From contig DASXXX010000053.1 of the NCBI GenBank assembly GCA_036502765.1, positions 172-64,171 on the forward strand: a stretch of DNA of 64,000 nt. The letters run 5' to 3'. Shown piece after piece: positions 3,643 through 51,777 of the stretch (within the stretch, counting starts at the first letter, position 1; each line of letters begins with the position of its first letter). A program made the position numbers and the translations under genes. The notes beneath the pieces are model-generated. The model saw nothing but the letters and a program-made list of their open reading frames with translations. It did no database searches and was not told the DNA's origin. This stretch comes from Acidimicrobiia bacterium (GTDB lineage Bacteria > Actinomycetota > Acidimicrobiia > IMCC26256 > DASPTH01).

Positions 3643-3646
3643 GGGG

Positions 3647-4432: not shown

Positions 4433-4444
4433 GAGCGCTACGGG

Positions 4445-4678: not shown

Positions 4679-4864
4679 AGTGGTCTCCTCGTTGTGCAGC
4701 ACCGTTCGGGGCTCCGAACGCGATCCGTCGCCCCAGTATCGCCGACGAGTGCCGGTAGGGTGTCGCCCCACCCCAATGCTGATTGGGGACGCCTCGCTGA
4801 CCGTCGACCGCTTCCGGTCGGGATGATCCCGTCGCCTCCTCTGAGCCATGACTCCGGAGCTTCG

Positions 4865-7086: not shown

Positions 7087-7123
7087 CCGGCGCGGTCGCG
7101 TGCGGCGCGCATCACTCGGCTGG

Positions 7124-8665: not shown

Positions 8666-8740
8666 CGTCGTCGGAACCTAGTGCGGGCCGACTGCGCGCC
8701 GAGCTCCAGCCCCGCGGTGTCGGTCGGTAGCGTCGCGGAA

Positions 8741-10478: not shown

Positions 10479-10936
10479 CCGCTTGTCTCCTCGGTTGCGA
10501 TCCCTCGTTCGTTCGCGAGCTGCGCGATCTGAGCGCGAGCGGCGTCGATCAACTCCGCGTTGGTGTTCGCGTGGCCTGCGAGACCCCAACCGCCGTCGAT
10601 CGCCTCGGTCAGGAGCACCCAGGTGCGTGACGCCAGCGTCGGGTCATCGGCGGCTGCGGCCACGATCTGCGTGAGGCGGGAGACGACCGCGAGCTGCTTC
10701 TCTCGGTTGAGTCCGCCGGCGTTGGTGAGCACCTGCACACGGACGTAGTCGCGATCACCGTCGACGTTGGAGAGCGCGTCGCCCGGCAGGTCGTGCACGA
10801 ACGCCGCAGTGTTCTGACGGAACAGCGGCACGTCCGGCACCTCCTCGACCTGCATGAGCGCGAGTGCCAGGTCGGCAGTCAACCGCCGCGTGTCGCGGAA
10901 GGTGCCCGCGGTCGCGTACACGTCGATCATGGGCAT
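10475..10936 (-). CDS. tautomerase-family protein (4-OT superfamily, long form)
   Basis: 153 aa starting MPMIDVY (Pro-1 after Met removal), the tautomerase hallmark. GGAGAG box upstream. First gene of a three-gene minus-strand operon. Confidence 0.65.
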   Translation of the reverse strand: MPMIDVYATAGTFRDTRRLTADLALALMQVEEVPDVPLFRQNTAAFVHDLPGDALSNVDGDRDYVRVQVLTNAGGLNREKQLAVVSRLTQIVAAAADDPTLASRTWVLLTEAIDGGWGLAGHANTNAELIDAARAQIAQLANERGIATEETSG

Positions 10937-11051
10937 CAGCGGCTCTCCTCCGTCGGTGCGCTATGTATGATGACATGCATACTACGCAGGAGTCTGACGT
11001 CGTGCATAGTGTCGAGCCGAGGACTCAACCCGAGCGCGAACAGGCGAGCCG

Positions 11052-31752: not shown

Positions 31753-31762
31753 GTGCTTCAGA

Positions 31763-31809
31763 TGGTGGCGGGGGAAGGATTTGAACCTTCGACCTTCGGG
31801 TTATGAGCC
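31763..31809 (-). repeat. att direct repeat, left copy (displaced 3' 47 nt of tRNA-Met including CCA)
   Basis: tggtggcgggggaaggatttgaaccttcgaccttcgggttatgagcc is identical to 51701..51747. Here the tRNA D-arm and 5' half are missing, so this is a fragment and not a gene. Confidence 0.9.
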
Positions 31810-31912
31810 ATGCTGGGTGGCGTCCACCAGAACTACGTGCGTGTTATCCAGTCCTCTGACCTGCGGTTTTGGTGAGCAACGGGTCCGCCAAGACCCACCG
31901 GATCCAGCGGGT

Positions 31913-31941
31913 TGCAACCATTTGGGTTGCAAAATGGTTGC
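31913..31941. repeat. subterminal 29-bp box TGCAACCATTTGGGTTGCAAAATGGTTGC (left copy)
   Basis: Identical to 51611..51639. Contains an 11-bp perfect inverted repeat (TGCAACCATTT / AAATGGTTGCA) and three GGTTGCA direct units. Lies about 100 bp inside the left att repeat. Confidence 0.8.
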
Positions 31942-33717: not shown

Positions 33718-36333
33718 CTACACGTCGTAAACATGCATGACCTCGTCGCCGTAGTGATTGATGACCTTGACCGCGATCTTCCCGGTTGAGGGTGCGTCGA
33801 ACGGTCGGCTCACGGTCGAGTAGAGACTTGACCAGGCGCCCTCGTCAATGTCGGCGCGCAGCCCCTTACGAAGGCGCTCGTAGGGATCGCCCGCGCCTGT
33901 GAAGTAGGCGTGGCGGACGAAGAAGCTCTCGCCGTTGTAGTCCGTGTCGACAAACCAGCATGCGACGTCCTCGGTCGAGCTCGAGCGCACCTCGCCGGTG
34001 GTCGGGTCGTAGACGTCGACGCCGCGAAGCTCAATCGTTACCTGGCCGTCCTCATGCTTCACGGTGAGGTCGGGTTCGCCAAAGACCATGAAGAGGTTCC
34101 CCGCACCGGTCTTCTTGAGGAGCTCGTCTCCCATCGCGAGATCGGGATTCATGTGCGCTGGCAGCACAACGAGCTTGCCGAACTCACGCGCGGTCTCGCC
34201 GACGCGCGCATCGAAGGCGAATCCGCAGACGACTAGCACGTCGAAGCCGCGGCCCTTGACCGCCTCCTTCGCGGCCTCCTTCACCTGGAGGGGTCCGACG
34301 GTGCCATGCTCGGGCCCGATCGAGACAGCAACCCGCTTCGTTATGCCGTCCGAGTCGGTGTACTCGCCCTCGCCGCTGATCCACTCGCCCGCGAAGGGTT
34401 CGAGCCAATCAAACGTGAGGCGCTCTTCGCGCTTGGTGTTCTGCACGCCAGCCTTCCGCAGATTCGCCAGGATCATCTCGACGAACGTGCCGGCCTCAGA
34501 GACAGTCTGCTCGCTGACGGTGCGGTCCGCTTCCTCGTCGAGCACACGGTGCGGCGAAAGGCTCTCGACCGTGAAGGGCCCTGACACCCGAACTCTCTTG
34601 CGGTCCTCGTAGGGCTGGTCGACGAGCAGCTCGGTCTCGGCGTGGCGCGCGATTGCAGCGTCGGCTTCCTCGCGGGTCACTCCTTCCTTGATGTTGGGGT
34701 TCTGCGCGATCGACTTCAGGGTGATGTGCGGCACGCGCTTGTAAACGAAGCCCTTGCGCACGTCATCCTCGAACCCGTTGCCAGTCGCGGGCATGCTCGT
34801 GAGCTCAGCCTCCTTGGCGGCCCCGTCCGCGGAGTCGGCAAGGAGGTGGTACGGATACTTGGCGGCCATGAGGCGAGTGCGGGCAAGAGCAAGTGAGACC
34901 CGGGAAGTGTCGATCGTGATCCAACGCCTCCCCCATTGCTCAGCGACATATGCAGTCGTGCCCGAACCACACGTTGGGTCGAGCACGAGGTCGCCTGGAT
35001 CAGTGGCCATGAGCAGACAACGCTCGACAACCTTTGCATTGGTCTGAACCACGTAGAGCTTGGGTTCGCCGAATCCCGAAGTGACCGTGTCTTCCCAGAG
35101 GTTGTTGATTGGGAACGCGGGAAAGTCATCGAGGTAGCGAACGTATTGAAGGGTCTTACCAAGCCCGATCAGGCGATTCGCCAACGCAAGGCGACGCATG
35201 CCGTCCCTGTTGGTCTTCCACCCGCCCTTGCCCGGCACATACGTAGTTCCACCAACCTCGACCTCGAACACGGTGGTCTGAGCGGGGCGCACGGTCTGAG
35301 AAGTAAGGGGAGCAGGACGGAAGACCGCGCCAGAGGGTGCCTCGTCATCACTGAAGCGTCTTCGGCTTCCGTCTGGGTCCTCCACCCACGAGTACTGCTC
35401 ACCTCCAAGTCCGCCGACTTCCTTTCCGCGGAATAGCTGGCGGTACTTCACATGGGCGGCATCGCGCGCGTACCAGAGAAGGAAGTCGTTCGTCGCTGCG
35501 AGGACATTCGTCCCTCCAGCGAAGCTGCCGGCACCGGATGTCTTCTTGAAGGTGATCAAGCTGACAAAGTTTTCACTGCCGAAGACCTCGTCGAGGACGT
35601 TCCTCACGAGATGAACGTTTTCGTCGCCAATCTGTACGAAGACACTGCCCGACTCGGTGAGCAGCTCGCGGGCGACCGTGAGGCGATCGCGCAAGTAGCC
35701 CAGGTACGAGTGGATGCCCAGTTCCCAGGTGTCACGGAATGCGCGGATCTGTTCGGGCTGGCGTGTGAGATCCTCGGCCTTGCCGTCCTTCACGTCTCGC
35801 TTGCGTGTGCTCACCTGCCAGTTGGAGCCGAACTTGATGCCGTACGGCGGGTCCAAGTAGATCATCTGGACCTTGCCTTTGAGGTTCTCCTTCTCGGCGA
35901 GGCTCGTCATCACGAGCAGTGAGTCTCCGAGGATCATGCGGTTCGACCAGTTGACCGGCCACTTGTAGAAGTCGACGATCTGGTCGAACTCCAAGGGACC
36001 GTCAAACCGCTCGAAGAGCGTCAGCTCCGGCTCGCGCTCCCCCACCGCCGCCGTGTTCCGCAGGTTCTCGACGAGCACGCGGGGGTCGATCTTCTCCTGG
36101 ATGTAGATCGGTACCGTCGGCACCGCGAGCTCTTGACGGTCCTGTTCGTCTTTGCCCTTCCACACGAGCTGGGGATCGAGCGACGGGTCACGCGGATAAA
36201 GCAGCGTCGTCGGTGCTTCCTCGGCATCACTAACGAAGTCGCGCAGCTCGTCCGTAGGAATGTTGACGCGCTTGTCCTGGTGACGGACGGATACCACCGG
36301 AGTCGGCGTCGCGGGCTTCTTCGCGCGAGCCAT
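33718..36333 (-). CDS. mod: site-specific DNA methyltransferase, type III Mod-like (beta-class N6A/N4C MTase)
   Basis: Start at MARAKKPATP (TGATG overlap with the res stop). Motif IV IYLDPPYG precedes motif I LVLDPTCGSGTT, the order typical of type III Mod. 871 aa with a long C-terminal extension. Confidence 0.85.
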   Translation of the reverse strand: MARAKKPATPTPVVSVRHQDKRVNIPTDELRDFVSDAEEAPTTLLYPRDPSLDPQLVWKGKDEQDRQELAVPTVPIYIQEKIDPRVLVENLRNTAAVGEREPELTLFERFDGPLEFDQIVDFYKWPVNWSNRMILGDSLLVMTSLAEKENLKGKVQMIYLDPPYGIKFGSNWQVSTRKRDVKDGKAEDLTRQPEQIRAFRDTWELGIHSYLGYLRDRLTVARELLTESGSVFVQIGDENVHLVRNVLDEVFGSENFVSLITFKKTSGAGSFAGGTNVLAATNDFLLWYARDAAHVKYRQLFRGKEVGGLGGEQYSWVEDPDGSRRRFSDDEAPSGAVFRPAPLTSQTVRPAQTTVFEVEVGGTTYVPGKGGWKTNRDGMRRLALANRLIGLGKTLQYVRYLDDFPAFPINNLWEDTVTSGFGEPKLYVVQTNAKVVERCLLMATDPGDLVLDPTCGSGTTAYVAEQWGRRWITIDTSRVSLALARTRLMAAKYPYHLLADSADGAAKEAELTSMPATGNGFEDDVRKGFVYKRVPHITLKSIAQNPNIKEGVTREEADAAIARHAETELLVDQPYEDRKRVRVSGPFTVESLSPHRVLDEEADRTVSEQTVSEAGTFVEMILANLRKAGVQNTKREERLTFDWLEPFAGEWISGEGEYTDSDGITKRVAVSIGPEHGTVGPLQVKEAAKEAVKGRGFDVLVVCGFAFDARVGETAREFGKLVVLPAHMNPDLAMGDELLKKTGAGNLFMVFGEPDLTVKHEDGQVTIELRGVDVYDPTTGEVRSSSTEDVACWFVDTDYNGESFFVRHAYFTGAGDPYERLRKGLRADIDEGAWSSLYSTVSRPFDAPSTGKIAVKVINHYGDEVMHVYDV

Positions 36334-39326
36334 CAGCCGGCCCTCCCCACATACGAACGGATCGCGTTCTTGGCGTCCCACGGATCTCGAATCTCGATGA
36401 AGTCCCACCGACCGAAGCCGCCGTGCGCGTTCACCGCCGGGATCCAGAAGTTCTTCGTGGTCGCGACCTTCTCAACCTTGTCGCGACGGAAGCCGCCGCT
36501 GACCTCTACGACAAGGTTGAGTGGAACATCGAGGCTCTCGTCGTAGCGGACAATGAAGTCGGGCAGGTAGTTGCGCTGCTCACCGTCGATCGCGTACGGG
36601 ATCGTGAAGCCGAGATGATCGTTCTTCACGTACGCGAGCACCTCGTCCATCGATTCCAAGCTCTCAGCCATCTTTCCTTCCCAACCAGAGTCGAGGACTA
36701 CGTGGCTGACATGGCACTTGTAGGGGCTGGTCTCGTAGACCTTCCTCGTCGTGTCGAAGTCGACGACAGCACTGGAGCCGCGATCACCGTCTGGCCGGAA
36801 TACCGGCTGGAGCCTCACCGTCTCCGGGTTCGTACGCACGATCGCTCGGTGTATGCGCGCCGCCGCGGCGTCCGCGAGTTTGTGGATTAGTAAGAGTTGG
36901 GGGAACGTGTCGTCCTTGCACTGAACGCACCGCCGCATCCAGTCGGAGACGATCGGGACCAGCTTCGGAAACAGCCACGCTTCCTCAAATCCGTCCTCGT
37001 CACGGAAATGGTTCTGGACGAGCCGGCGGGTAAGGCGGAAGGCGACCTCTTGCTCTCGAGTGGCGTGGAGCTGCTCGAGGGTGTGAACCTCAGTCGCGCC
37101 AACGATGCCAGCGATGTCGGTCTGGGTCGGCACGTCCTTGGTCGACAGCGCGAGGCGCGAGTCGGCGGTGAACCTCGCGCTCAGCTCGTCGGTCGACAGC
37201 ACGTACCGGTAGCCAGCGATGAGCGGGAAGTTGATCGCCGAGCCCTCGCGGCCAGGCAGCGCCCGCACGCGGGTGGTCGCGATCTCGGGCTTGGGCGTCT
37301 GCTCTGATCCCGCGGTCGGGATGAATGAGAAGGGAACGCCGTAGACCTCGGCGTACTCGGGCTCGAGACGGCCTTCGTCGTTGACGACATAGCTGCGGCG
37401 CCGAAGCCCGCGCCCCACGACTTGCTCGCACAGGAGCTGGGTGCCGAAGGCGCGAACGCCGAGAATGTGCGAGACCGTCGTCGCGTCCCAACCTTCGGTC
37501 AACATCGAGACCGAGACGACACAACGTACCTGCTCGCCGAGCTTGCCCGGCTTGCCCACGGTGTTGAGTACCTCGCGGAGAAGATCCTCGTCGGTGAGCT
37601 CCTCGGAGCTCCGACCCGGGAAGCGTTCTCGGTACTCGGCCTTGAACTCCTCGATCTCCGTGGCCGCGATCCGCTTGAACTCGTCGCTCATCACCTCGCC
37701 CGACTCGAGCTGCTCCGAGTCGACAAGGATCGTGTTGGGGCGATGAGTCCAATGGCCGTCCTCGACGTTCGAGAAGAGCGTCAGCTCTCCAGGCACCGGA
37801 ACGACGGACCCATCCGGGAGAGACTTCGACCAGCCAGCGACGTAGTCGAAGATCATCTTCGACACCGCCGTGTTGTTGCAGACGACGATGAACACCGGCG
37901 GCGTCGACGCGCTGCTCGCCGTGACGCTCTCTTGCCAGCCGACGAACGACTTCTCGTAATGCTCGTAGAGACTGTGGAGCGCACCTTGCAGCTCAGCCGG
38001 AAGTCGGGGGCCTGTCCCGTTATCGACGCCGGCGCTCCGGCGGTTCTTCTTGGGAAGCCCATCCTTGATTCGCAGCCAGAGGTTGCGGTACGTGACACCG
38101 TCGCCCAGCATCGCGTTGTCGCTCACGGGCACACGCGGAATCTTCACGATGCCGCACTCGACCGCGTCGGTGAGCGAGAAGTCGGAGACGACCCAGGGAA
38201 AGAGCTTGCCCTCGCGGTAACCGGAGCCGCCGAGGAAGAACGGCGTGGCCGAGAGGTCGTAGACCGTCTTCACGCCGAGCTTGGCGTGGATAGCCTGTAA
38301 CCCCGAGATCCAGACCATCGCCTCCTCGTTGCGGAGGTCGGCCTCTCGCTTCTCGTCACCCGTGAGCTTCACGTCGGCCGCTTCGCCGTCGGCAGCGTCC
38401 GCGGGACGACGCGCGTAACAGTGATGCGCCTCGTCATTCAACACCACGATCTGGTTCCGCCCGGCTCCGAGGTCGCGGCAGACGCGGCGAACCATCTGGT
38501 CCGGCGTCTCGCGGAAGGGATCGGAGCCGTCGGGATTCAGCACTGACTTCGTGAGACGGGCCGCCTTTCCCGCCTTCGTCTCACGCAACAGGAACGCGTG
38601 GAAGTTGGTGATGACGATGCGAGCCCGACCAAGCTGGTCCACGAGGTCGGCGGGGACGATGTCGCGCTGGCGGTAATAGTTGTCGGGGTCGCTCGGTAGC
38701 ACGACGCGCAAACGGTCCCTGATCGTGATGCCCGGCGTGACGATGAGGAACCGGTCGGAGAACCGGGCGTCCTGCGGGTTGGCAGCCTTGTTGAGCGTCT
38801 GCCAGGCGATCACCATTGTCATGACGACCGTCTTGCCCGATCCGGTCGCCATCTTGTGCGCGACGCGGAACAGCCCTGGGTTGTAGCGCGCGCTCTCGTC
38901 CGTGAGCAGGTTGGTGATCCAGACGTCGCCGACCTTGGTCGCGACCTCGGCGACGTAGATCGCGGTCTCGAGCGCCTCGATCTGGCAGAAGAAGAGTCGA
39001 CGCTCGCGCTCCGGACTGGTCCAGTAGGCGAGGAGCCGCCGGGTGGTCGGCGTGACACCCTGCCAACCGCCGAGGCGCCAACGCGCGACCCGCTCGCGAA
39101 TGCGGTTGATGTTCTCGCTGACCTCGATCCGGTCCCGCGTCCACTCGGCGTCGAGCGCGAGCTGCCCGCCCCGCTTCTTCGTCGCCGGGATCGGCACGAA
39201 GTACGAGCTGGGGCGACGGCCGTCGACGACTTCGTCGGTGATCCCGTCGTCGTCGAACCGGAAATGCTGGATGGGCTCGTCGTAGGGCGAGTTGAGGATC
39301 GGGTTCTCGATCACGACCGGCTTCAT
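36333..39326 (-). CDS. res: type III restriction enzyme Res-like DEAD/DEAH helicase-nuclease
   Basis: Start at MKPVVIENPILNSPYDEP (ATGA overlap with the upstream HTH gene). Walker A MATGSGKTVV, DEAH box LNDEAHH, C-terminal PD-(D/E)xK-like YLPDF...VVEVSGGFRRDK. Confidence 0.85.
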   Translation of the reverse strand: MKPVVIENPILNSPYDEPIQHFRFDDDGITDEVVDGRRPSSYFVPIPATKKRGGQLALDAEWTRDRIEVSENINRIRERVARWRLGGWQGVTPTTRRLLAYWTSPERERRLFFCQIEALETAIYVAEVATKVGDVWITNLLTDESARYNPGLFRVAHKMATGSGKTVVMTMVIAWQTLNKAANPQDARFSDRFLIVTPGITIRDRLRVVLPSDPDNYYRQRDIVPADLVDQLGRARIVITNFHAFLLRETKAGKAARLTKSVLNPDGSDPFRETPDQMVRRVCRDLGAGRNQIVVLNDEAHHCYARRPADAADGEAADVKLTGDEKREADLRNEEAMVWISGLQAIHAKLGVKTVYDLSATPFFLGGSGYREGKLFPWVVSDFSLTDAVECGIVKIPRVPVSDNAMLGDGVTYRNLWLRIKDGLPKKNRRSAGVDNGTGPRLPAELQGALHSLYEHYEKSFVGWQESVTASSASTPPVFIVVCNNTAVSKMIFDYVAGWSKSLPDGSVVPVPGELTLFSNVEDGHWTHRPNTILVDSEQLESGEVMSDEFKRIAATEIEEFKAEYRERFPGRSSEELTDEDLLREVLNTVGKPGKLGEQVRCVVSVSMLTEGWDATTVSHILGVRAFGTQLLCEQVVGRGLRRRSYVVNDEGRLEPEYAEVYGVPFSFIPTAGSEQTPKPEIATTRVRALPGREGSAINFPLIAGYRYVLSTDELSARFTADSRLALSTKDVPTQTDIAGIVGATEVHTLEQLHATREQEVAFRLTRRLVQNHFRDEDGFEEAWLFPKLVPIVSDWMRRCVQCKDDTFPQLLLIHKLADAAAARIHRAIVRTNPETVRLQPVFRPDGDRGSSAVVDFDTTRKVYETSPYKCHVSHVVLDSGWEGKMAESLESMDEVLAYVKNDHLGFTIPYAIDGEQRNYLPDFIVRYDESLDVPLNLVVEVSGGFRRDKVEKVATTKNFWIPAVNAHGGFGRWDFIEIRDPWDAKNAIRSYVGRAG

Positions 39327-39559
39327 CGGCGGTGCTCCCGGCCGGCTGAATCGGTCGGCCGGCCGTGTTGGCGCATCCAGTCGACGACCTGCGACCGCAG
39401 CCAAAGCCGGGGACGGCCGGGCCCAAGATCGATCACAGGACGCGGCATGTCCGGATAGCGCCGTTGGTAGCGGCTCACTGTGTTCCGCTGCGCCAGCCCC
39501 ATCAACGTCGCTACGCCCTGCGCGTCGATCAGGTCAGCGATCTCAACCGTCTTCGGCAC
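39323..39559 (-). CDS. excisionase/MerR-type helix-turn-helix DNA-binding protein (possible R-M controller)
   Basis: 78 aa. LIDAQGVATLMGLAQRNTVSRYQRR...RLWLRSQVVDW resembles small HTH_17/excisionase-family proteins. First gene of the HTH-res-mod operon. Confidence 0.65.
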   Translation of the reverse strand: MPKTVEIADLIDAQGVATLMGLAQRNTVSRYQRRYPDMPRPVIDLGPGRPRLWLRSQVVDWMRQHGRPTDSAGREHRR

Positions 39560-44063: not shown

Positions 44064-44351
44064 TTGGCGACACGAGTCCAGATCCAGTGCATCAACAAGA
44101 AGAACCGGCTCGACCCGCATGACAGAATCAACCACGTCGGCGGTCTGAATGCGGATCAGACCCGGTGGAAGCTCACCGAGACCGATGCCATCGCCGGCAT
44201 TGATGAGGGCAAATGGTCTTTCTACGTCGTAAACCCGCGGGGTGGTGTGGTTGAAGTCATCGTGGTCACCCGGCTCGGGCACCGCTACCTCAAGACCGTC
44301 GCAGATGGCGATCAGCCTGACAACCTGCTTGCGCTTCCCGAGTGTCCTTGA
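44064..44351 (+). CDS. DUF3892-domain protein
   Basis: TTG start 5 nt after GGAGGG, in frame with track ORF 43977..44351. VQIQCINKKNRLDPHDRINHVGG...WKLTETDAIAGIDEGKWSFYV...YLKTVADGDQPDNLLALPEC matches the DUF3892 pattern. Confidence 0.65.
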   Translation: MATRVQIQCINKKNRLDPHDRINHVGGLNADQTRWKLTETDAIAGIDEGKWSFYVVNPRGGVVEVIVVTRLGHRYLKTVADGDQPDNLLALPECP

Positions 44352-44510: not shown

Positions 44511-44849
44511 GTGAGCACAGATGAGCCGTTCCTTCCGGTCATTGGTGACGTCTACGAGGTTCACCGCGACGTTCGGGCCGGCGCCGCGCTCGACAAGAAG
44601 GAGTGGCGGCGAGCAGTCGTCGTCGAGGTGCCCGAGGCGGGCGGGATGATCGGCATCGTGACGCGGACGACCACCAAGGCGAAGCCCGGCGTGCACTCAG
44701 GTAAGGACGCGGCGTCCGGTTTGACGAAGGAAGGCCGCTTCGACCGCCCAGGCTGGGTTCAGGCAGTGCATTGGAATCCGCGGACGGTGCGCCGGGTTGG
44801 CAAACTTGACGAAGCGCTCTTCGCAAAGATCAAGGAGCGCTTCGTCTGA
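44511..44849 (+). CDS. PemK/MazF-like (SH3-barrel toxin fold) protein, tentative
   Basis: 112 aa, GTG start. The GDVYEV...RRAVVVEV...GIVTRTTT...RRVGKLDEALFAKIKE layout parallels MazF/PemK blocks (GDI..V, RP.VV, P.T.., G.L....). Assignment is by eye only. Confidence 0.45.
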   Translation: MSTDEPFLPVIGDVYEVHRDVRAGAALDKKEWRRAVVVEVPEAGGMIGIVTRTTTKAKPGVHSGKDAASGLTKEGRFDRPGWVQAVHWNPRTVRRVGKLDEALFAKIKERFV

Positions 44850-45817
44850 TGAGCGCTTGGCAGGAACTCGCCGATACCGGTCGGCTCGGCAACGAGTCGA
44901 GCGCGCTCATCTATGCGACAGTTCGCGCCGTCGGGCGAAGCTTCCCGCCGCCCGAGGGCTACCGCACCTGGACCGGCGACGCTGTCATCGAAGCGGCTCA
45001 TGATTTTGTCGCCGAAGCCCCGAAGCGGGTGCTCGACGCGTGGCTCGGCGCCGTAGATGAGCGGAGCTTCGAGGTTCGCATGCAGGGCGCGGTGAGGAAC
45101 TGGTTCAGAGACCGAGGCCGCCGAACGCGGTTGGGTCGACTGGTCCGTCGGATCCGCGAAGTACTGGATGACGACAACGACTTCGCGCGAACGGGCAACG
45201 CGGCGACAAGGGACGAGCGGTGGCATCTGACCGGCGGTCCAGCGGCCCCGACAACGGCGACTGAACACGAATTGTTGCTCGCGGCCGCGACCGAAAAGGA
45301 CGTCGCGATACCCCGTTGGCACGCGAAAGCAAAGCGCCAAGCACCCGACGCCGACCGAGACACGATCGTTCGCCTTGCACGTCGAATCCTCGAGGCGGCG
45401 GACGGTTCCGTCGCAGGGTCCGATCTGGCACGGGCAATGGGTCACCGCCTCGGAGTCGCGCCTCAGCCGCAGTCGCTTGAGTTGGACGAGCACGATGAAT
45501 CGGATCTCGCCGACCCGACCGCAGAGCAGGCAGTCGAGCACTCGGTAGCGAGGATGACGGCCCATGACATCTTCGAACGTCTGACGCTGCGAGAGCGGCT
45601 CGTGGTAGCGACATGGACTGAGAGCGTTCGGAACTCTGGCGCAGCGTTGGGCTTAGGCCACAGCCAGGCCGCCACGCTGAGAGAACGAGTCGTCGCCATG
45701 GTCCGAAGTGAGCTGATCGATGACGACATGGCCGAAGTTGTGCTCGACGAACTCACAACGAAAGCCGCTGAATGGTGGCCCAGCCGGACGCGCGATGACA
45801 ATCCGCCGTTTCAATGA
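44849..45817 (+). CDS. sigma-70/ECF-like protein (region 2-like and region 4-like segments), tentative
   Basis: 322 aa. The start overlaps the upstream stop (TGATG). AVRNWFRDRGRRTRLGR resembles sigma region 2.x. FERLTLRERLVVATWTESVRNSGAALGLGHSQAATLRERVVAMV resembles the region 4 HTH. About 120 aa are inserted between them. Confidence 0.45.
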   Translation: MSAWQELADTGRLGNESSALIYATVRAVGRSFPPPEGYRTWTGDAVIEAAHDFVAEAPKRVLDAWLGAVDERSFEVRMQGAVRNWFRDRGRRTRLGRLVRRIREVLDDDNDFARTGNAATRDERWHLTGGPAAPTTATEHELLLAAATEKDVAIPRWHAKAKRQAPDADRDTIVRLARRILEAADGSVAGSDLARAMGHRLGVAPQPQSLELDEHDESDLADPTAEQAVEHSVARMTAHDIFERLTLRERLVVATWTESVRNSGAALGLGHSQAATLRERVVAMVRSELIDDDMAEVVLDELTTKAAEWWPSRTRDDNPPFQ

Positions 45818-47262
45818 GAGTGCGAGGAGAACGCGATGGGACAGCCGAGGTCATGAACGAACACCTTCTCGACACGGAACTCTTGCGACTCGCCGAGGGT
45901 GACGCCGAAGCCGAGGTAGCCGAACTCTGGAACCAACACCTTGCCGAATGCGCCCTCTGCGCGGAGCGCTTTCGCGTCTATCCGGCTGGGGGCCAACGCC
46001 CCCGGACCACACCGAGCTTCGACATGGAGGTTCTGCCTGACGAGCTGCGGCGACTCATCGTCTCTTCCACATCCAAGGGGGAGGCACCGCAGCCCGGTCA
46101 GGTATGGCGACTCGTTGGCAGCGACGAGGCCGTGATGGCCCTGATTCTTCGCGTGAGGGAGACGGGATTGATTGTTGCGCCCGTCACGCTCGATGTTGAG
46201 CTCGCCGACGACGCCACCCCTGTCGTAACTGCGGAGGCTTCGCCGATCGGAATCGCACTCGCGGTATGGGGAAGCCTCACATCAGAGGTGACGCTTGACA
46301 GTGCCGACAGGTACCTCTTCGATCTGCCGCTTGTTGACGCCGTCAGGCAAGCTCGATCGGGAACCGATCCATCGTTGCCAGGCGTGACCCGTGGGGTTCC
46401 GATCGTCTCGGTCATCGACACTCGCGTCGAATATCGCCAGCACCTCCTCGAAGTCCTTGAGTCGCTTTCTCCTCACTCGTACGACGACGAAGATGACGAT
46501 GAAGATGACGATGAAATCGATGGTGGCAAGTTCGACGATACGTACGAACGCGTTGAGGCTCTGCCAGCCTGGGCGCGGCAACGGCCGGACCTCGCCCGCC
46601 TCGTGCAAGATCTCGAGCTGGAGCTACAGATCCGCAGACCAAGTGGCTGCGTGCTGCGTTACCTCCCGAAGCTCGACCAAGTCCTGGTGGCTGAGAAAAC
46701 TCTGTTCGGAGTTGCTGTTGTCTCCGAGATGGACGTAGTACTGCCGATCTTCGTGTCCGAGACGCCATCCTTCGTCGGCATCCCGCTTGAGACACCTGCG
46801 CAGCTCTTGAAGAAGGATGCCGATGCAACGGCTGTCGTCATTGCCGTCGGTAGTGGTCTAACTGCCGAAGCAATCGCAGTTCAGCCCCATGAAGCGAACG
46901 ACGCGATCGAGGCCCCGTCCGGGGAGATCGCGCCTCCACGATGGCCGTCTCCGCTGGGACTTCCTGACTGTGTCGCCGGCTTTCTTGAGCAGAGCATCTG
47001 GACTTGGGAGCCCGTTTCTGATTCCGCGCTGCATGTCGCGACTCTGAACATGGTCGACGTTGTCGCGCGAGCAACACAGGAAGCGCTCGCAGAAACCGCG
47101 GCGAGGTCTACCGGATTTAAGATCACGGAGAAGAAGGACGGGTACAGCTCAATCGGTGCAACTGATGCCCCTGCGATTACGTCGCTTGTTACGGCATCGG
47201 AGGCGAACGGACACGGGGGCGCTTCTCGCCTCATCGACGAATACATCGGAGCGCCGACGTGA
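45814..47262 (+). CDS. protein with N-terminal ZAS-type (H-x3-C-x2-C) anti-sigma motif and large uncharacterised C-terminal region
   Basis: 482 aa. ATGA overlap with the upstream gene (alternative start at 45853). HLAECALC at residues 42-49. Acidic stretch YDDEDDDEDDDEIDGGKFDD mid-protein. No TM helix seen. Confidence 0.5.
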   Translation: MRVRGERDGTAEVMNEHLLDTELLRLAEGDAEAEVAELWNQHLAECALCAERFRVYPAGGQRPRTTPSFDMEVLPDELRRLIVSSTSKGEAPQPGQVWRLVGSDEAVMALILRVRETGLIVAPVTLDVELADDATPVVTAEASPIGIALAVWGSLTSEVTLDSADRYLFDLPLVDAVRQARSGTDPSLPGVTRGVPIVSVIDTRVEYRQHLLEVLESLSPHSYDDEDDDEDDDEIDGGKFDDTYERVEALPAWARQRPDLARLVQDLELELQIRRPSGCVLRYLPKLDQVLVAEKTLFGVAVVSEMDVVLPIFVSETPSFVGIPLETPAQLLKKDADATAVVIAVGSGLTAEAIAVQPHEANDAIEAPSGEIAPPRWPSPLGLPDCVAGFLEQSIWTWEPVSDSALHVATLNMVDVVARATQEALAETAARSTGFKITEKKDGYSSIGATDAPAITSLVTASEANGHGGASRLIDEYIGAPT

Positions 47263-49007
47263 TCCGCAAATTGCAGCTGCGAAATTGGCGCGCTTACGCG
47301 AACCTCACCTCGGACTTCGAACCTGGGACGACGTTCGTCGTCGCAAGAAACGGCGTCGGCAAGACCAGCATGGTGAGCGGGCTCGCGTGGACTCTGTACG
47401 ACCGGCCAGTAGCGGAAGTGAAGGCGTCTCTCCATGACGGCGCGCCCGCCGACGGCTGGGTCGAACTCATCCTTCCGAATGACACGGTCCTGTCCGTACA
47501 TCGACACTTCGACGGGCGTCGTTCGACACTCGAAGCCTCGGTCGACGGAACGAATCTTTCCCCAGACGCGTATGAGGCCTTTTTGGTAGAGGCGTTGGGC
47601 GCGTCGACGGCTCTTCTGTCACGAACAACTGTCATGAACGAAGGTGATGCACGACCGCAAGCTGCGGAAGAGCTTCATCTACGTGACCACCTTTGCCAGG
47701 TGCTTGGTGTTACCGGCCTCTTGGAGCTGTCTGGAGAGCTCTCGAATCGAATCAAGGAAAATGAGAAGGCGACCTCTCGAATCCGCAGCGCCGCGAAGAT
47801 CTCCCAGGACCAACTCGTCGCGCTCCGAAGCGAGCGAGAGAGATTGGAGAGCGACCTAGCGAGCGCCAAGGCGGAGTCAGAGGCGCTGCGCGCGAAATAC
47901 GACGATGCTCGTCGGAGACTCACGGCCGTCGAGAGTGCCAGCGCTCTTGCCTCGATTGCAGAAGAGCGCGACGAGCAGCTTCACCAGATCGCCGTCGACC
48001 TCAATGCCGTGACCGGATCATCGCCAGATGCAGCGATCGAACCGATGCTGACGCGCACGGAGGGAGAGCTCGATGCCCAGATAGAGCTCATGCATCGGCG
48101 GGATGCCGAACTGCAGGCCCGTGCTCGATACATTCGGGACGGCCTCGCTTCCCTAAACGAGACCGGCGAGGGTACGTGCCCCGTCTGCAGGCGTCCGCTC
48201 AGATCCAAGGACGTCTCGGAAGCGCGGACCGGACATGAGAGCGAACTCGCCGCAATCGAAGCTGAGATCGCAGAGATCGACAACACGGCGCTCAGCGAAC
48301 GTCGAGAGGCGCTTCGTGAGCTGCGTCGTCGGCTGAGCTTGGTGCCGGCCGTCCCTGACATTCCTGTCGCTGAAGTCACCCTCCAAGAGGCACAGCTTCT
48401 TGAGAGGGAGGCACAGGAGGCCCTTGAAGACCTGGTCGGACGCACTCGTGTGCTGGAGTCCCAGCTTGCTGATACTGCCAGCCAGGTGACAAGCGCGGAG
48501 AACGACCTCATCGCCTCGGCAGACGCAACCCGGCACTTCAGGTATGAGGCACTCCTTGGAGCCGCGAGATCCACTGCCGACGAGGTTGTTCGTTACGCCC
48601 TTGAGGCACAGATCGACCCGCTCGCCGCAGCCGTCCGTGACCGTTGGAAGCTCTTGTTCGGACAGCGGGGTGATCTTCATCTCGACACTGACGGCTCGCT
48701 TTACCGTCTCGCCAACCATGTACGTTTGCCCTTCGCGCAATTCAGCGCAGGCGAGCGGACTACTGCGCTACTCATCCTGCGTATGTTGGCGGTAGCGGCT
48801 TCGACACGCGCCGGATTCGTGTGGGTAGACGAGCCGCTTGAGCATCTCGACCCGGATGGACGCCGACGGGTGGCGTCAATGCTCTCCCAAGCGACGGCAC
48901 CGACCGGACTCCGCCAGGTACTCATCACGACGTACGAGGAACCACTAGCCCGCCGACTGAGCGAGAGGGTCGACGGAGTCCATCTTCGTTACGTGCGGGC
49001 CGCGTAG
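47259..49007 (+). CDS. Rad50/SbcC/SMC-like AAA ATPase with central CxxC hook
   Basis: 582 aa. GTGA overlap with the upstream gene. N-terminal Walker A ARNGVGKTS, long heptad-like Glu/Arg/Leu-rich middle, CPVC at residues 307-310, C-terminal signature FSAGERT and Walker B FVWVDEPLEHLD. Confidence 0.8.
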   Translation: MIRKLQLRNWRAYANLTSDFEPGTTFVVARNGVGKTSMVSGLAWTLYDRPVAEVKASLHDGAPADGWVELILPNDTVLSVHRHFDGRRSTLEASVDGTNLSPDAYEAFLVEALGASTALLSRTTVMNEGDARPQAAEELHLRDHLCQVLGVTGLLELSGELSNRIKENEKATSRIRSAAKISQDQLVALRSERERLESDLASAKAESEALRAKYDDARRRLTAVESASALASIAEERDEQLHQIAVDLNAVTGSSPDAAIEPMLTRTEGELDAQIELMHRRDAELQARARYIRDGLASLNETGEGTCPVCRRPLRSKDVSEARTGHESELAAIEAEIAEIDNTALSERREALRELRRRLSLVPAVPDIPVAEVTLQEAQLLEREAQEALEDLVGRTRVLESQLADTASQVTSAENDLIASADATRHFRYEALLGAARSTADEVVRYALEAQIDPLAAAVRDRWKLLFGQRGDLHLDTDGSLYRLANHVRLPFAQFSAGERTTALLILRMLAVAASTRAGFVWVDEPLEHLDPDGRRRVASMLSQATAPTGLRQVLITTYEEPLARRLSERVDGVHLRYVRAA

Positions 49008-49126: not shown

Positions 49127-50398
49127 ATGCGCATTGGACCGCAGGCCGGGATCCTGAATCGACCGCCAGAGCATCAGCTTGTTGCTGCGCTCGCCTTCGT
49201 TGGCGAGCGCTCGCGCCAGCCCTGTGTGGACACTCTCGAGGCGCTGCGAACGGTATTGCGCCGCGAGCTTCACAGCGACATTGACTCGCCCGACGCAACG
49301 ACCGACAAGGGGCAACCGTTCGTCGAAACCGGTGAACTCGGATTTCAGGACGGATTTGATCGAGGTCATCTGACCGTGACCGTGAGCTTCTCTGCATCAG
49401 CCATGGACGCTCTCGAGGTTCCGGCCGCGCTTCGGCCGCAAGATCTTGTTGCCGCACCCTGGGATGCTCTAGGCATCGCACCCGCCGTGCCTGCCGCCGG
49501 CGACGTTCTCGTCCAGATCTGCACTGACAGCCCATACGTCGCAGAACATGTGCTCCGTCGAATCGAGCACAGCCTGGACGGTCGCATGCAGGTCGTCTGG
49601 TGTGTCGCAGGCGACCAACGCTTCACGAGCCGGTCCGGCCGCGTCAATGCAGGAGAGGCTCGGGCGCTGAACGGCTTCCTCGATGGGACCGCGAACCTCG
49701 ACCCCGCGCAGAGCGACGACGACTACGCGCTTGTCTTCATCGATCCTGATGTGGTGGCTGCGTATCCATCAAACCCACCAGCGGGTCAGCAACCGCAGTC
49801 GGCGTATGGGCCCAACAACAACCCGGTGTTTCCCCCGCTGCGTGACAAGCCGACGTTCGAGCCACCTTGGACTCGTGACGGAACCTATTTGTTCGTTCAA
49901 GCAATCGTGCTCGAGGTAACCGGATGGGACAAGACATCGCTCACCGATCAGGAGCACGCGGTCGGGCGCTACAAGGTGTCAGGAACGGCGCTGGACTTGC
50001 CGGACGACCCCAGCCACCGAAACGACACGCCGGCGTACGCGGCAAATCCCAGCGACGAGACCGTGCCAGTCGACTCACATATTCGGAAGTCGAATCCTCG
50101 CGGTCCTGAAGATGCGCTCCGACGCATTTATCGCCGCGGATACCCGCTGATGATTGCGGATGGAAGCGGCGCCATGCGTCGAGGCCTGCTCTTTGAGTCC
50201 TTCTCGCGGAGCACGAGCACACAGGTCGAGTTTATTTTGCGTGCCTGGATGCTCAACCCGGATTTCCCACGGCCGAGCGCGGGCAAGGACAAGCTCATCG
50301 CCTTCTTCAGCGCGACGCTGTGTGGCGGCTACTACTTCGCACCACCGCTCGATCACTCTCGCGACCCGTCATCCTGGCGTATCCCGGCCACGACGTGA
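49127..50398 (+). CDS. Dyp-type peroxidase family protein
   Basis: Start at the internal ATG after GGAGATCGT (MRIGPQAGILN...). GFLDGTANL (GxxDG), DSHIRKSNPR (proximal His) and the RRGYP region. No Tat signal or encapsulin tag seen. Confidence 0.8.
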   Translation: MRIGPQAGILNRPPEHQLVAALAFVGERSRQPCVDTLEALRTVLRRELHSDIDSPDATTDKGQPFVETGELGFQDGFDRGHLTVTVSFSASAMDALEVPAALRPQDLVAAPWDALGIAPAVPAAGDVLVQICTDSPYVAEHVLRRIEHSLDGRMQVVWCVAGDQRFTSRSGRVNAGEARALNGFLDGTANLDPAQSDDDYALVFIDPDVVAAYPSNPPAGQQPQSAYGPNNNPVFPPLRDKPTFEPPWTRDGTYLFVQAIVLEVTGWDKTSLTDQEHAVGRYKVSGTALDLPDDPSHRNDTPAYAANPSDETVPVDSHIRKSNPRGPEDALRRIYRRGYPLMIADGSGAMRRGLLFESFSRSTSTQVEFILRAWMLNPDFPRPSAGKDKLIAFFSATLCGGYYFAPPLDHSRDPSSWRIPATT

Positions 50399-50424: not shown

Positions 50425-50886
50425 CTACCGTCGAGGCGGTTCGCGCGGCCATCGACGCTCTACAGAAGCGCGGTACACAACGTCGACGAACGGGCCGCGC
50501 CTCCGAGCGCGTTGCACAAGGCGGTTGATGTTGCGCGCGAAGTACTCGGCCATCTGCGGCCCGGTCAGGTGCTGATTCGCGATGGCGAAGACCCGAAGTT
50601 GGCTGTTGACCAACGTCGCTTGGTTCTCGGGGTCCCGGTAGATGCGCTCGTCCTTCGTCAAGGCAACCCAGCCCGCGGCATCGGCGTCGGCGATCCACCG
50701 AGTGTCGGCGACTCGCTGGTCCTCGCCTCCCGGATAGACGTCCACCATCGTGTGCACGGTCAGTCCGAGCTGTCGCAGAGCCTCGGGCACGACGTGGCGT
50801 CCGAGGCTGCGATCGACGAAGAACTCAGGCTGCTGCTCGACTCGGCGCGGCAAGGGCAGCGTGTACGTCGTCGAGCGGGACGCCAT
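50425..50886 (-). CDS. PIN-like toxin (DUF5615 / Mut7-C, VapC45-like), tentative
   Basis: EFFVDRSLGRHVVPEALRQLGLTVHTM...WVALTKDERI resembles DUF5615/Mut7-C PIN-like domains that pair with DUF433 antitoxins. Start uncertain (50886 or 50904). Overlaps the upstream gene by about 60 nt. Confidence 0.6.
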   Translation of the reverse strand: MASRSTTYTLPLPRRVEQQPEFFVDRSLGRHVVPEALRQLGLTVHTMVDVYPGGEDQRVADTRWIADADAAGWVALTKDERIYRDPENQATLVNSQLRVFAIANQHLTGPQMAEYFARNINRLVQRARRRGPFVDVVYRASVERRWPREPPRR

Positions 50887-51619
50887 AATCCTCGGCCACC
50901 TCAAGCTCGTCCTCGCCCGCTTCGATGCGGCCGATCACATCGGCAAGCCTGGCCGCGCCATGGATGAAGATCGGCTGACCAAACGCGCGCTCCGGATCAG
51001 CGACGAGGATCGACTCTTCGGTGATTGGAAGAGCGAGTCGAATCGCCCAGCCGCCGTCGTACTCGATCCGCTTGAGGTACTGGTCGATCACATCGTGGAA
51101 CACGCGCTGGCCCGACCGAACGACAGTCAGAAGGCCAAGCTGTTTGTCTCGCTGTGACTTGGCGTAGTCGAAGAGCAGCTCCGCACCATCGGTGTACAGG
51201 TGACGGGACGCCAGCGCGTGCTCCAGACCCATCTCCTGGTCAAGTCGCTCGAGTGCCGGCCTAATCCGTTGCAGCGGGAGGCCGGTCTCGCGGAACGCGG
51301 CGAGGACCATGCCCTCCGCCAAGCCGACGAAGGGTATCGTCAGCCGTCCGCCCGGCACGCTCGTAAGCAGCGCCTCGCCTGCAACCGGTTTGCGCCCAGC
51401 CGGCCGACGAACATAGCCCCGCACCCACGTGTCGAACGTCGACCTCGGCACTCCGAGGTACGAGGCGGCCTCGGTCACCGTGTACAGCGGCCGGGTAAAA
51501 CGCGGGTCGGTGGTGTTCAGCGGAGCAGCCCTTCTCAAAGTCGAGACGGCCAAACCGTACCGCCGAGGTATGACGCGGACGCGGAGGAACGGCACCGATC
51601 GCGCGTGGGCTGCAACCAT
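50825..51619 (-). CDS. HTH + DUF433 antitoxin-like protein (VapB45-like), tentative
   Basis: RPLYTVTEAASYLGVPRSTFDTWVRGY (MerR-like HTH), with C-terminal GQPIFIHGAARLADVIGRIEAGEDELEVAEDYGVPLDDVHAAL (DUF433-like). Start uncertain: ATG at 51619, or TTG at 51538. Confidence 0.6.
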   Translation of the reverse strand: MVAAHARSVPFLRVRVIPRRYGLAVSTLRRAAPLNTTDPRFTRPLYTVTEAASYLGVPRSTFDTWVRGYVRRPAGRKPVAGEALLTSVPGGRLTIPFVGLAEGMVLAAFRETGLPLQRIRPALERLDQEMGLEHALASRHLYTDGAELLFDYAKSQRDKQLGLLTVVRSGQRVFHDVIDQYLKRIEYDGGWAIRLALPITEESILVADPERAFGQPIFIHGAARLADVIGRIEAGEDELEVAEDYGVPLDDVHAALAAPSRAAA

Positions 51620-51639
51620 TTGGGTTGCAAAATGGTTGC
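51611..51639. repeat. subterminal 29-bp box TGCAACCATTTGGGTTGCAAAATGGTTGC (right copy)
   Basis: Identical to 31913..31941. Lies about 60 bp inside the right att repeat. Confidence 0.8.
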
Positions 51640-51654
51640 GAGGCCCGGATGCAG

Positions 51655-51685
51655 AGAGGCCCTGAGCTCGTCGCTCAGGGCCTCT
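51655..51685. terminator. 13-bp-stem hairpin AGAGGCCCTGAGC-TCGTC-GCTCAGGGCCTCT downstream of tRNA-Met
   Basis: Perfect inverted repeat 16 nt beyond the tRNA 3' end, on element-derived DNA. No U-tract, so the terminator role is inferred. Confidence 0.4.
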
Positions 51686-51700
51686 GACCTGCATCTTCGA

Positions 51701-51777
<77 letters not shown>

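Follow-up and report, generated by a model that had tools for sequence, protein, structure and literature searches.

Introduction

Rad50 and SbcC, of the Mre11-Rad50 (SbcCD) complex, are proteins of about 880-1300 aa in which a split ABC head is joined to an antiparallel coiled coil with a CxxC zinc hook at its apex, co-encoded with an Mre11/SbcD nuclease. A Rad50-like ATPase of about 600 aa, often with a zinc hook, also ends the three-gene operon of Lamassu (LmuA-LmuC-LmuB; DdmABC; 'ABC-3C'), in which a middle component gene lies immediately upstream of the ATPase. In this system LmuB and LmuC sequester an effector near the zinc hook, and release it on DNA-end binding (10.1101/2025.03.14.643221). 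ECF sigma factors are co-transcribed with their zinc-binding (ZAS) anti-sigma factors, such as the ChrR and RsrA/RshA types, and sigma/anti-sigma switches are known to be driven by envelope signals, redox state, proteolysis, phosphorylation or partner switching.

Bub and CBASS operons are known to sit next to the DNA-damage-responsive regulators CapW, CapH/CapP and CapK/CapS, although about half of the catalogued Bub operons have none of these beside them. In Myxococcus, DdvS/DdvA is an ECF sigma/anti-sigma pair that controls a CBASS/CRISPR island (PMC11506125). Here we describe a small Rad50-like ATPase, in a 64-kb stretch of DNA from an Acidimicrobiia bacterium (contig DASXXX010000053.1; the whole analysed stretch is hereafter the window), which is encoded with a sigma-factor-like and an anti-sigma-like protein, and which is probably the DNA-sensing input of a transcriptional switch for which no description was found in the literature that could be searched.

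Results

A Rad50-like ATPase with a predicted zinc hook

The original prediction was of a miniature Rad50/SbcC-like ATPase, with a CPVC hook at the midpoint of the protein, no Mre11/SbcD partner, and regulatory-looking neighbours. The open reading frame exists, and its motifs were confirmed: Walker A at G32-V-G-K-T-S37, CPVC at 307-310, the signature at F495-SAGERT, and the Walker B/D-loop at F520-VWVDEPLEHLD531. In an alignment of 16 homologues that are 26-36% identical to the window protein, residues N31 G32 V33 G34 K35 S37, C307 P308 C310 R312, S496 G498 E499, D524-E-P-L-E528 and L530-D-P532 were invariant. The protein matched Pfam SMC_N (2e-14) and AAA_23 (5e-12) above their cut-offs, whereas Rad50_zn_hook on residues 293-337 scored 22.6 bits, just under the 24.3-bit cut-off, although one homologue carries that hit. 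The family profile directly matched solved Rad50 zinc-hook fragments, 6zff at 4.7e-9 and 1l8d at 1e-8, aligned to profile positions 250-365.

The AlphaFold2 model (mean pLDDT 87) has a head built from both termini, with long helices at 183-252 and 260-301, then a non-helical turn at 302-315 that holds CPVC, and return helices at 316-339, 343-360 and 375-467, giving an antiparallel coiled coil of about 150 residues per arm. Hence the hook is at the modelled fold-back point, and not in a globular insert. The best hit in a PDB profile search was the archaeal Rad50 3aux (1.2e-22), and the best Foldseek hit was Rad50 7zr1_D (3.5e-13), with Lamassu LmuB 9hqu_A found at rank 9 (8e-10). PADLOC LmuB models scored 1e-11 to 3e-7 with partial coverage, but the profile search did not retrieve LmuB from the PDB at E <= 0.01. 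One departure from Rad50 was that the H-loop histidine ('VSH') aligned with Y559 ('TTY'), a position that was Y or F in all 16 family members.

The protein does not belong to a housekeeping family in a fixed chromosomal context. It reached no NCBIfam cut-off, the best Rad50 model scoring 73 bits against a cut-off of 1000, and ASRP scoring 63 against 300. Relatives were confirmed in at least 259 places of a collection holding one genome for each of 185,579 species. The window copy lies on a defence-rich 19.9-kb integrated element in tRNA-Met, bounded by a 49-nt perfect direct repeat, with a MobF relaxase and an integrase. No Mre11/SbcD-type gene was seen next to the ATPase in the window, and none formed a recurring cluster in the flanks of 86 related loci, although without a dedicated profile scan for metallophosphoesterases. 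Each element of the original prediction was supported; what it had not recognised was that the neighbours are operon partners, and that the module carries its own promoter motif, which also precedes neighbouring defence operons.

Features of the locus in the window, with coordinates relative to its first nucleotide
Feature	Position	Strand	Description
Left 49-nt repeat	31761..31809		Left copy of the perfect direct repeat; att-like end of the element
P1	44008..44031	+	ECF-type promoter-like motif GGACACGGCGGACCGGTTCGCCGT, upstream of the operon
DUF3892 gene	44064..44351	+	Likely first gene of the transcript; TTG start preceded by GGAGGG
gene0	44511..44849	+	MazF/PemK-like small protein (112 aa); last base is the first base of the gene A start codon
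gene A	44849..45817	+	Sigma-factor-like protein (322 aa, long subfamily)
P2	45786..45809	+	Internal promoter-like motif GGACG-N13-CGCCGT in the 3' end of gene A, 44 nt before the gene B ATG
gene B	45853..47262	+	Anti-sigma-like protein (469 aa from ATG 45853; the ORF opens at 45814); N-terminal H...H-x3-C-x2-C motif (HLAECALC), conserved C-terminal domain; stop overlaps the gene C start (GTGA)
gene C	47259..49007	+	Rad50-like ABC ATPase (582 aa, GTG start) with coiled coil and predicted zinc hook
Walker A codons	47352..47369	+	G32-S37
CPVC hook codons	48177..48188	+	Residues 307-310
Signature to Walker B/D-loop	48741..48851	+	Residues 495-531
P3	49047..49070	+	Promoter-like motif GGACACGCGGACTCGATCCGTCGT, 40 nt after the gene C stop
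Dyp-type peroxidase gene	49127..50398	+	Candidate cargo behind P3; start at ATG 49127 inferred
Right 49-nt repeat	51699..51747		Right copy of the repeat; 3' part of tRNA-Met (51701-51777, minus strand)

A conserved operon with sigma-like and anti-sigma-like genes

Gene B was found upstream of gene C in 74 of 79 related loci with enough upstream DNA, gene A in 68 of 72, and both in 66 of 72, with the ATPase as the last gene of the operon. The B stop overlapped the C start by 4 nt in 47 loci, and one representative protein is a B-C fusion, a possible physical link between the two. The loci span Actinomycetota, Chloroflexota, a gammaproteobacterial MAG and a Latescibacterota MAG. A Mycobacterium avium plasmid carries the triad, and there PGAP itself calls gene A a sigma-70 family sigma factor; cultured carriers of the module are Williamsia maris DSM 44693, Aeromicrobium sp. 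Root495, Mycobacterium deserti, and Mycobacterium avium plasmid pP7a. Within the window's subfamily, gene0 is conserved directly upstream of gene A in 17 related loci plus the window, and its family profile matched MazF/PemK structures over their full length, albeit with a borderline E-value of 7e-4. The DUF3892 gene (Pfam, 6e-18) is not conserved in other loci.

Across 69 homologues of A, 27 hit Sigma70_r2, 18 hit Sigma70_r4 and 10 hit Sigma70_r4_2. The whole-family profile hit FliA at 9e-11 and the ECF sigma CnrH at 6e-7, while for the short subfamily the PDB sigma-factor hit was 4.7e-8, with both sigma-2 and sigma-4 covered. However, for the window's own subfamily only the C-terminal sigma-4 HTH was detectable (FliA, 1e-3), plus TIGR02937 at E = 0.014 and an RNxxxDxxRR-like motif, and hhalign did not align its 230-aa N-terminal part with the sigma-2 of the short subfamily.

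The H-x3-C-x2-C motif, with an upstream His, was present in 27 B proteins of 412-482 aa, every one in that size range, whereas the short subfamily lacks the cysteines. Eight of 72 B proteins hit Pfam zf-HC2, although the window's own protein had no Pfam hit. The corresponding NCBI protein, VGN51_03790, starts at M14 of the open reading frame. Protein B had no convincing membrane helix, no PDB sequence hit and no fold hit below 1e-3, but its model was poor (pLDDT 55) and confident only for residues 260-385, meaning a remote fold relationship is not excluded.

Promoter-like motifs and adjacent cargo

An ECF-type bipartite motif recurs around these operons, as GGACA-N13-CGACGT, or TTTC-N15/16-GCGAYA in the other subfamily, and motif type co-varies with the A/B subfamily. 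With at most one mismatch, GGACA-N13-CGACGT occurred 118 times against 24 in shuffles, with the hits falling at four recurring positions. The bipartite motif lies upstream of the operon, before B and just after C, and also faces adjacent cargo. TTTC-N15/16-GCGAYA occurred 33 times against 4.1 in shuffles, and 31 of those lie directly upstream of A or face the divergent operon. In the window, P1 and P3 were the only two matches to GGACA-N13-CGNCGT, and flank the operon, while P2 is a third, weaker copy. P1 and P3 carry CGCCGT/CGTCGT in place of CGACGT, and two or more matches arose in 15 of 100 shuffles of the window, hence the weight comes from their positions. The motif occupies the position class of P1 in about 20 long-subfamily loci, that of P2 in 19, although the C-terminal tail of protein A is not conserved there, and that of P3 in 10 other loci, where it precedes Bub operons or an ABC exporter.

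The cargo behind the motifs included Multi_ubiquitin proteins (up to 8.8e-19), with a full type II Bub operon of Ubl, DUF6791+ThiF and DUF6527 in one locus (operon definition from 10.1101/2024.11.21.623953); a type III CBASS of CD-NTase + HORMA + TRIP13 in another, with E-values of 7e-123, 7.5e-48 and 3.4e-115; and ABC-2 exporters (ABC_tran + ABC2_membrane). Ubl/E1 operons adjoin the triad in about 29 of 86 loci, in three different arrangements. In the window, the adjacent cargo is a Dyp peroxidase (Pfam Dyp_perox_C 1e-26; TIGR01413 1e-42). However, most short-subfamily loci show no obvious cargo with the motif, and neither ABC exporters nor a peroxidase are classical immune genes.

Discussion

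These data are, somewhat more likely than not, explained by the ATPase being the third subunit of a conserved cytoplasmic sigma / anti-sigma / Rad50-like module. Under this inferred mechanism, two copies of C pair through the CPxC zinc hook and carry B, which holds the sigma-like protein A inactive through its N-terminal anti-sigma domain. When the Rad50-like heads bind their ligand and ATP, the coiled coils would rearrange, and B would let go of A. The ligand is suggested to be DNA only by homology, whether ends, damaged DNA or replicating foreign DNA. Free A would then direct RNA polymerase to the module's own bipartite promoters, re-expressing the module, with an internal promoter that boosts B and C as negative feedback, and switching on the adjacent cargo operon, as well as the MazF-like protein inside the operon of the window. 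There is no direct evidence that A binds RNA polymerase or the motifs, which could instead be operator sites, or promoters for a host sigma factor, and the zinc anti-sigma motif could itself be the sensor, for example of redox state. The Tyr/Phe in place of the H-loop histidine suggests a slow-hydrolysing switch, and not a motor.

An unlikely, though not excluded, alternative is a Lamassu-like abortive-infection system in which the released protein A is itself the effector, arresting the cell by capturing RNA polymerase or driving the MazF-like gene0, with adjacent cargo being incidental. The order of effector, middle component and ABC ATPase is that of LmuA-LmuC-LmuB, LmuB models match C with partial coverage and LmuB is a structural match, the MazF-like gene is the first conserved gene in its loci, many short-subfamily loci have no cargo carrying the motif, the window copy lies in a defence-rich element, and the plasmid sigma factor SigN is reported to be intrinsically toxic (PMC10601692). 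However, A and B have no PADLOC LmuA or LmuC match, the profile of C retrieves Rad50 but not LmuB from the PDB at E <= 0.01, the MazF match is borderline, with gene0 absent from the short subfamily, and motif copies in front of Bub, CBASS and ABC operons, in several arrangements, argue that transcription of the neighbours is the output.

Less likely still is that the sigma/anti-sigma pair senses another signal, such as thiol oxidation, through the zinc-cysteine motif of B, with the ATPase merely an output: a nuclease-free Rad50-like DNA-repair or DNA-tethering protein made under stress. Some anti-sigma factors with this motif (RsrA and RshA types) are likely to be redox sensors, the window cargo is a peroxidase, and C is placed to be transcribed from the module's own promoters. 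Yet the short subfamily keeps B-C coupling without the cysteines, the overlap of B and C and their one fusion fit a complex better than a regulator and its target, the catalytic H-loop histidine is replaced throughout the family, and no nuclease or other repair partner is conserved in the flanks examined. It is very unlikely that the module instead serves the mobile element, with an SMC-like protein handling element DNA in maintenance, excision or transfer, and a dedicated sigma factor for element genes. The mobile element of the window, the MOBF plasmid carrying the M. avium copy, and an integrase near the module in one other locus are compatible with this, but no relaxase, integrase or partition gene is conserved with the triad across the 86 loci, the genes that recur beside it and carry the motif are Bub, CBASS and exporter operons, and no phage record holds a relative.

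It remains possible, if tentative, that a Rad50-like ATPase with a zinc hook acts as the cytoplasmic nucleic-acid sensor of a sigma/anti-sigma switch, turning on bacterial immune operons (Bub, CBASS) and stress genes when DNA ends or foreign DNA appear. This would be a new way of controlling alternative sigma factors, linking DNA-end sensing directly to promoter selection, and a further class of regulator of immune operons. The module sits next to Bub and CBASS operons in Actinomycetota and Chloroflexota, and may fill part of the gap left by Bub operons that have no CapW, CapH/CapP or CapK/CapS beside them.

The module would connect Rad50, Lamassu and transcriptional control. Compared with Rad50/SbcC, the ATPase shares the split head, antiparallel coiled coil and CxxC hook, but is smaller, lacks the H-loop histidine, has no Mre11/SbcD gene seen nearby, and occurs sporadically and on mobile elements, coupled to a sigma/anti-sigma pair. 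The resemblance to Lamassu includes operon structure and, in the inferred mechanism, the release of a sequestered partner when the SMC-like sensor binds DNA, but the first gene is sigma-like, rather than an enzyme effector with an LmuA C-terminal domain, B is anti-sigma-like, and the apparent output is transcription from dedicated promoters, such that the released protein would be a sigma factor and not a toxin. As with ECF sigma factors and their ZAS anti-sigma factors, the bipartite promoter-like motif has ECF-like spacing and a CGT-containing -10 element, placed so that it could be autoregulatory; the differences are the third, Rad50-like gene, and the large conserved C-terminal domain of B, of unknown fold. 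Finally, the module shares the genomic niche of CapW/BrxR, CapH-CapP and CapK-CapS, often being divergent from Bub and CBASS operons with a shared intergenic region, but has no homology to these repressors, which are controlled by a protease or a kinase; and whereas DdvA is a transmembrane anti-sigma, B has no convincing membrane helix, and is partnered by a Rad50-like ATPase.

Sequence and predicted structure of the Rad50-like ATPase

The original prediction of a compact Rad50/SbcC-like ATPase, with a split head and a CPVC hook at the protein midpoint, was upheld. The open reading frame of gene C starts with GTG and encodes 582 aa, with Walker A at residues 32-37, CPVC at 307-310, the signature FSAGERT from 495 and the Walker B/D-loop at 520-531. 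A word-indexed search of 5.8 billion proteins returned only 16 relatives, all of 578-633 aa, which apart from the window's own protein were 30-44% identical over the best local alignment. In their alignment the Walker A residues, C307, P308, C310, R312, S496, G498, E499 and DEPLE.LDP are invariant. Pfam assigned SMC_N and AAA_23 above their cut-offs, whereas Rad50_zn_hook scored 22.6 bits on residues 293-337, against a cut-off of 24.3 bits. The best NCBIfam models were archaeal Rad50 (1e-20), although these matches were far below the models' cut-offs. The top PADLOC hit was the MADS component mad3 (4.8e-17), but this was uninformative, as an ordinary ABC-transporter ATPase hit the same model better (2.4e-27).

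The AlphaFold2 model of the ATPase has a mean pLDDT of 87, and predicts a head built from both termini. An outgoing arm runs from residue 152 to 301, with breaks near 176-182 and 253-259, followed by a non-helical turn at 302-315 that holds CPVC, and a return arm from 316 to 467, with breaks at 340-342 and 361-374. Therefore the hook sits at the fold-back of a predicted antiparallel coiled coil of about 150 residues per arm. In searches of solved structures, the family profile found Rad50 heads (3aux, 1.2e-22), as well as the isolated Rad50 hook structures 6zff (4.7e-9), 1l8d (1e-8) and 5gox (1.3e-4), but no LmuB at E <= 0.01. Foldseek ranked Rad50 first (7zr1_D, 3.5e-13), with Salmonella Lamassu LmuB ninth (9hqu_A, 8e-10). 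One deviation is consistent across the family: the H-loop histidine of Rad50 aligns with Y559, and this position is Y or F in every family member, which is inferred to reflect a slow-hydrolysing switch.

Conservation of the three-gene operon

Six metagenomic contigs carrying relatives all show the same three genes in a row, encoding a protein with a Sigma70_r4 hit (A), a protein with no Pfam family (B) and the ATPase (C). A scan of one genome per species confirmed at least 259 places encoding a relative of the ATPase, and returned the best 80 loci. These are mostly from Actinomycetota, including Mycobacterium deserti, Williamsia maris, Aeromicrobium sp. Root495 and Nocardia spp., with others from Dehalococcoidia, Caldilineaceae, a gammaproteobacterial MAG and a Latescibacterota MAG. 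Profile searches of all ORFs in 86 loci found gene B upstream of C in 74 of the 79 loci with enough DNA, gene A in 68 of 72, and both in 66 of 72, with the B stop overlapping the C start by 4 nt in 47 loci. Three loci with more distant ATPase homologues (L054, L080 and L081) lack detectable A and B upstream, although L081 still has a type II Bub operon nearby, and these may represent another partner set.

An exhaustive profile search of 1.84 billion cluster representatives gave 569 proteins at E <= 1e-30, nearly all of 580-620 aa, and the family is therefore small. One representative, P0140 (1074 aa), joins a long-type B, with the zinc anti-sigma motif at its N-terminus, to a full Rad50-like C; this is either a natural fusion that supports a B-C complex, or a frameshift or gene-calling artefact. 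No relative was found in phage records. The triad is carried by a clinical M. avium plasmid (pP7a, MOBF), on which PGAP annotates gene A as a sigma-70 family sigma factor. There, Ubl-like, 115-aa and ThiF genes are followed by the sigma, hypothetical and AAA ATPase triad, and then by a 1004-aa DEAD/DEAH helicase and Tn7-like transposase genes.

Features of the sigma-like and anti-sigma-like proteins

Of 69 homologues of A, 27 hit Sigma70_r2, 18 hit Sigma70_r4 and 10 hit Sigma70_r4_2. In the PDB, the family profile hits FliA (9e-11), WhiG, the ECF sigma CnrH (6e-7) and SigE, and the profile of the short subfamily covers both sigma-2 and sigma-4. The window belongs to a long subfamily of about 320 aa, in which only the C-terminal sigma-4 HTH is detectable (FliA, 1e-3), and hhalign does not connect its N-terminal 230 residues to the short subfamily. 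A conserved RNxxxDxxRR-like motif aligns with ARNKAxDALRR in the short subfamily. In the long subfamily, a fourth gene lies directly upstream of A in 17 related loci plus the window, where it encodes 112 aa; its profile matches MazF/PemK over the full length, at a borderline E = 7e-4.

Gene B comes in a short form of about 285-310 aa and a long form of 412-482 aa. All 27 B proteins of 412-482 aa, including that of the window, carry an N-terminal H(P/L), then about 25 residues, then H-x3-C-x2-C, which is the zinc anti-sigma signature, and eight proteins hit Pfam zf-HC2. The NCBI call for the window protein (VGN51_03790, Acidimicrobiia MAG, 469 aa) starts at M14. The part conserved across all forms is a C-terminal domain of about 200 residues, for which a sequence profile found no PDB match. 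The AlphaFold2 model of B has a pLDDT of 55, being confident only for residues 260-385, and Foldseek against the PDB gave nothing below 1e-3; scattered weak hits to PD-(D/E)xK nucleases are not reliable, and no catalytic motif is conserved. A membrane anti-sigma was rejected, as B has no convincing membrane helix, and its most hydrophobic stretch (Kyte-Doolittle 1.9) contains acidic residues and is modelled as beta strands.

Promoter-like motifs within and around the operon

In 11 short-subfamily loci, the intergenic region of about 100 nt between A and a divergent ubiquitin-like gene holds two copies of TTTC-N16-GCGACA(A/T), one facing each way. Across all loci, TTTC-N15/16-GCGA[TC]A occurs 33 times, against 4.1 in shuffles, and 31 of those lie right upstream of A or face the divergent operon. 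In the long subfamily the motif is GGACA-N13-CGACGT, an ECF-like -35/-10 with 16-nt spacing, which with at most one mismatch occurs 118 times, against 24 (range 13-33) in shuffles, whereas a spacing of 14 gave 25 hits against 23. It falls at four recurring places: upstream of the operon (about 20 loci); in the 3' end of A just before B (19 loci), where the protein tail is not conserved; 21-130 nt after the stop of C (9 loci and the window, with a further locus, L007, having it 644 nt downstream); and on the opposite strand upstream of the operon (5 loci). In the window, GGACA-N13-CGNCGT matches only twice in 64 kb, with the two matches flanking the operon, and a third copy, GGACG...CGCCGT, lies 44 nt before the ATG of B. 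Motif type co-varies with the A/B subfamily, as is expected of cognate sigma/promoter pairs, although recognition of the motifs by A remains an inference.

Genes and operons behind the motifs

Downstream of C, the motif precedes Multi_ubiquitin proteins in three loci (8.8e-19 in L020, as well as L036 and L065). In the Aeromicrobium sp. Root495 locus the Ubl is followed by DUF6791+ThiF and DUF6527, which is a type II Bub operon as defined in 10.1101/2024.11.21.623953. The motif precedes an ABC_tran and ABC-2 permease pair in a further locus (L014), and a Dyp-type peroxidase in the window. Divergent from the operon are Ubl/E1 operons in two loci (L033 and L052), and in another (L058) a complete type III CBASS (cyclase 7e-123, HORMA 7.5e-48 and TRIP13 3.4e-115). 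Overall, Ubl/E1 operons adjoin the triad in about 29 of 86 loci, in three arrangements: divergent, downstream, and upstream on the same strand.

In two loci (L004 and L005) a Thoeris pair (ThsA_Macro + ThsB_TIR) lies directly downstream of the ATPase gene on the same strand, but no promoter motif was found before it. In 15 short-subfamily loci, an ECF sigma with a SnoaL-like C-terminal domain and a PIG-L deacetylase recur downstream of the ATPase, which is probably shared synteny among related MAGs rather than cargo.

Genomic setting of the window copy

A 49-nt perfect direct repeat, the right copy of which is the 3' part of tRNA-Met, bounds a 19.9-kb integrated mobilisable element of lower G+C. 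A second, 33-nt repeat, 97% identical, lies just inside both ends, and may be a recombinase arm site. The element carries a Fic/DOC protein, an N6_N4 DNA methylase and a ResIII helicase that look like a type III restriction-modification pair, a MobF relaxase, an integrase, a DUF3892 gene, the module and the Dyp peroxidase. The DUF3892 gene (6e-18) sits between the motif upstream of the operon and the MazF-like gene, and is not conserved in the other loci. At the tRNA-proximal end, a PIN_10 domain gene overlaps an HTH_66 + DUF433 gene, possibly as a toxin-antitoxin-like pair.

Positions of the features described in the window and in related loci
Sequence	Position	Strand	Feature
Window	31761-31809		49-nt direct repeat, left copy
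Window	31909-31941		33-nt repeat
Window	32020-33306	+	Fic/DOC protein
Window	33718-36408	-	N6_N4 DNA methylase, 896 aa
Window	36333-39404	-	ResIII helicase, 1023 aa
Window	44008	+	GGACA-N13-CGNCGT match
Window	44064-44351	+	DUF3892 gene
Window	44511-44849		MazF/PemK-like gene
Window	45786-45809		GGACG...CGCCGT copy
Window	45853		M14 of B
Window	47259-49007	+	Gene C, Rad50-like ATPase
Window	49047	+	GGACA-N13-CGNCGT match
Window	50425-50904 and 50825-51694	-	PIN_10 domain gene overlapping an HTH_66 + DUF433 gene
Window	51607-51639		33-nt repeat
Window	51699-51747		49-nt direct repeat, right copy
Window	51701-51777	-	tRNA-Met
L004	9592-11006		Thoeris pair
L005	2800-4214		Thoeris pair
L024 (short-subfamily locus)	7869-9689		ECF sigma with SnoaL-like domain and PIG-L deacetylase
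L087 (M. avium plasmid pP7a, NZ_CP076857.1)	2003-10963		Triad with flanking genes

Interpretation and relationship to known systems

The best-supported reading of these data is a cytoplasmic switch comprising the sigma-like protein, the anti-sigma-like protein and the Rad50-like ATPase. In this hypothesis, B is inferred to hold A inactive; C, dimerised through the hook, is inferred to be the input, which by homology would sense DNA; and released A would recognise the motifs, and transcribe both the module and the adjacent cargo. The analogy is with Lamassu, in which LmuB2-LmuC sequester LmuA near the zinc hook, and release it on DNA-end binding. The contacts of B with A and with C are likewise inferred, rather than observed, but the hypothesis is now directly testable in cultured strains.

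Alternative explanations appear less likely. The module may instead be a Lamassu-like system in which freed A, or the MazF-like protein, is the toxin, although this is considered unlikely. It is more doubtful still that B is a redox-sensing zinc anti-sigma, with C merely a repair output, and a function in maintaining the mobile element is the least probable of these readings.

Bub and CBASS operons are already known to sit beside DNA-damage-responsive regulators, namely CapW, CapH/CapP and CapK/CapS, and the triad occupies the same niche without homology to any of them. The coupling of such an ATPase to a sigma/anti-sigma pair, with dedicated promoter-like motifs next to Bub and CBASS operons, was not found in the literature that could be searched, which did not extend to the ABC ATPase classification that defined ABC-3C (Krishnan et al. 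2020). The combination appears to be new, while Lamassu-type sensors and ECF-type switches are known. The ATPase alone is a new, compact protein of the Rad50/LmuB-like group. It departs from Rad50 in its H-loop, in its family score and in the absence of a partner nuclease, albeit without a scan of all flanks using a metallophosphoesterase profile, while the departure from Lamassu concerns LmuA and LmuC.
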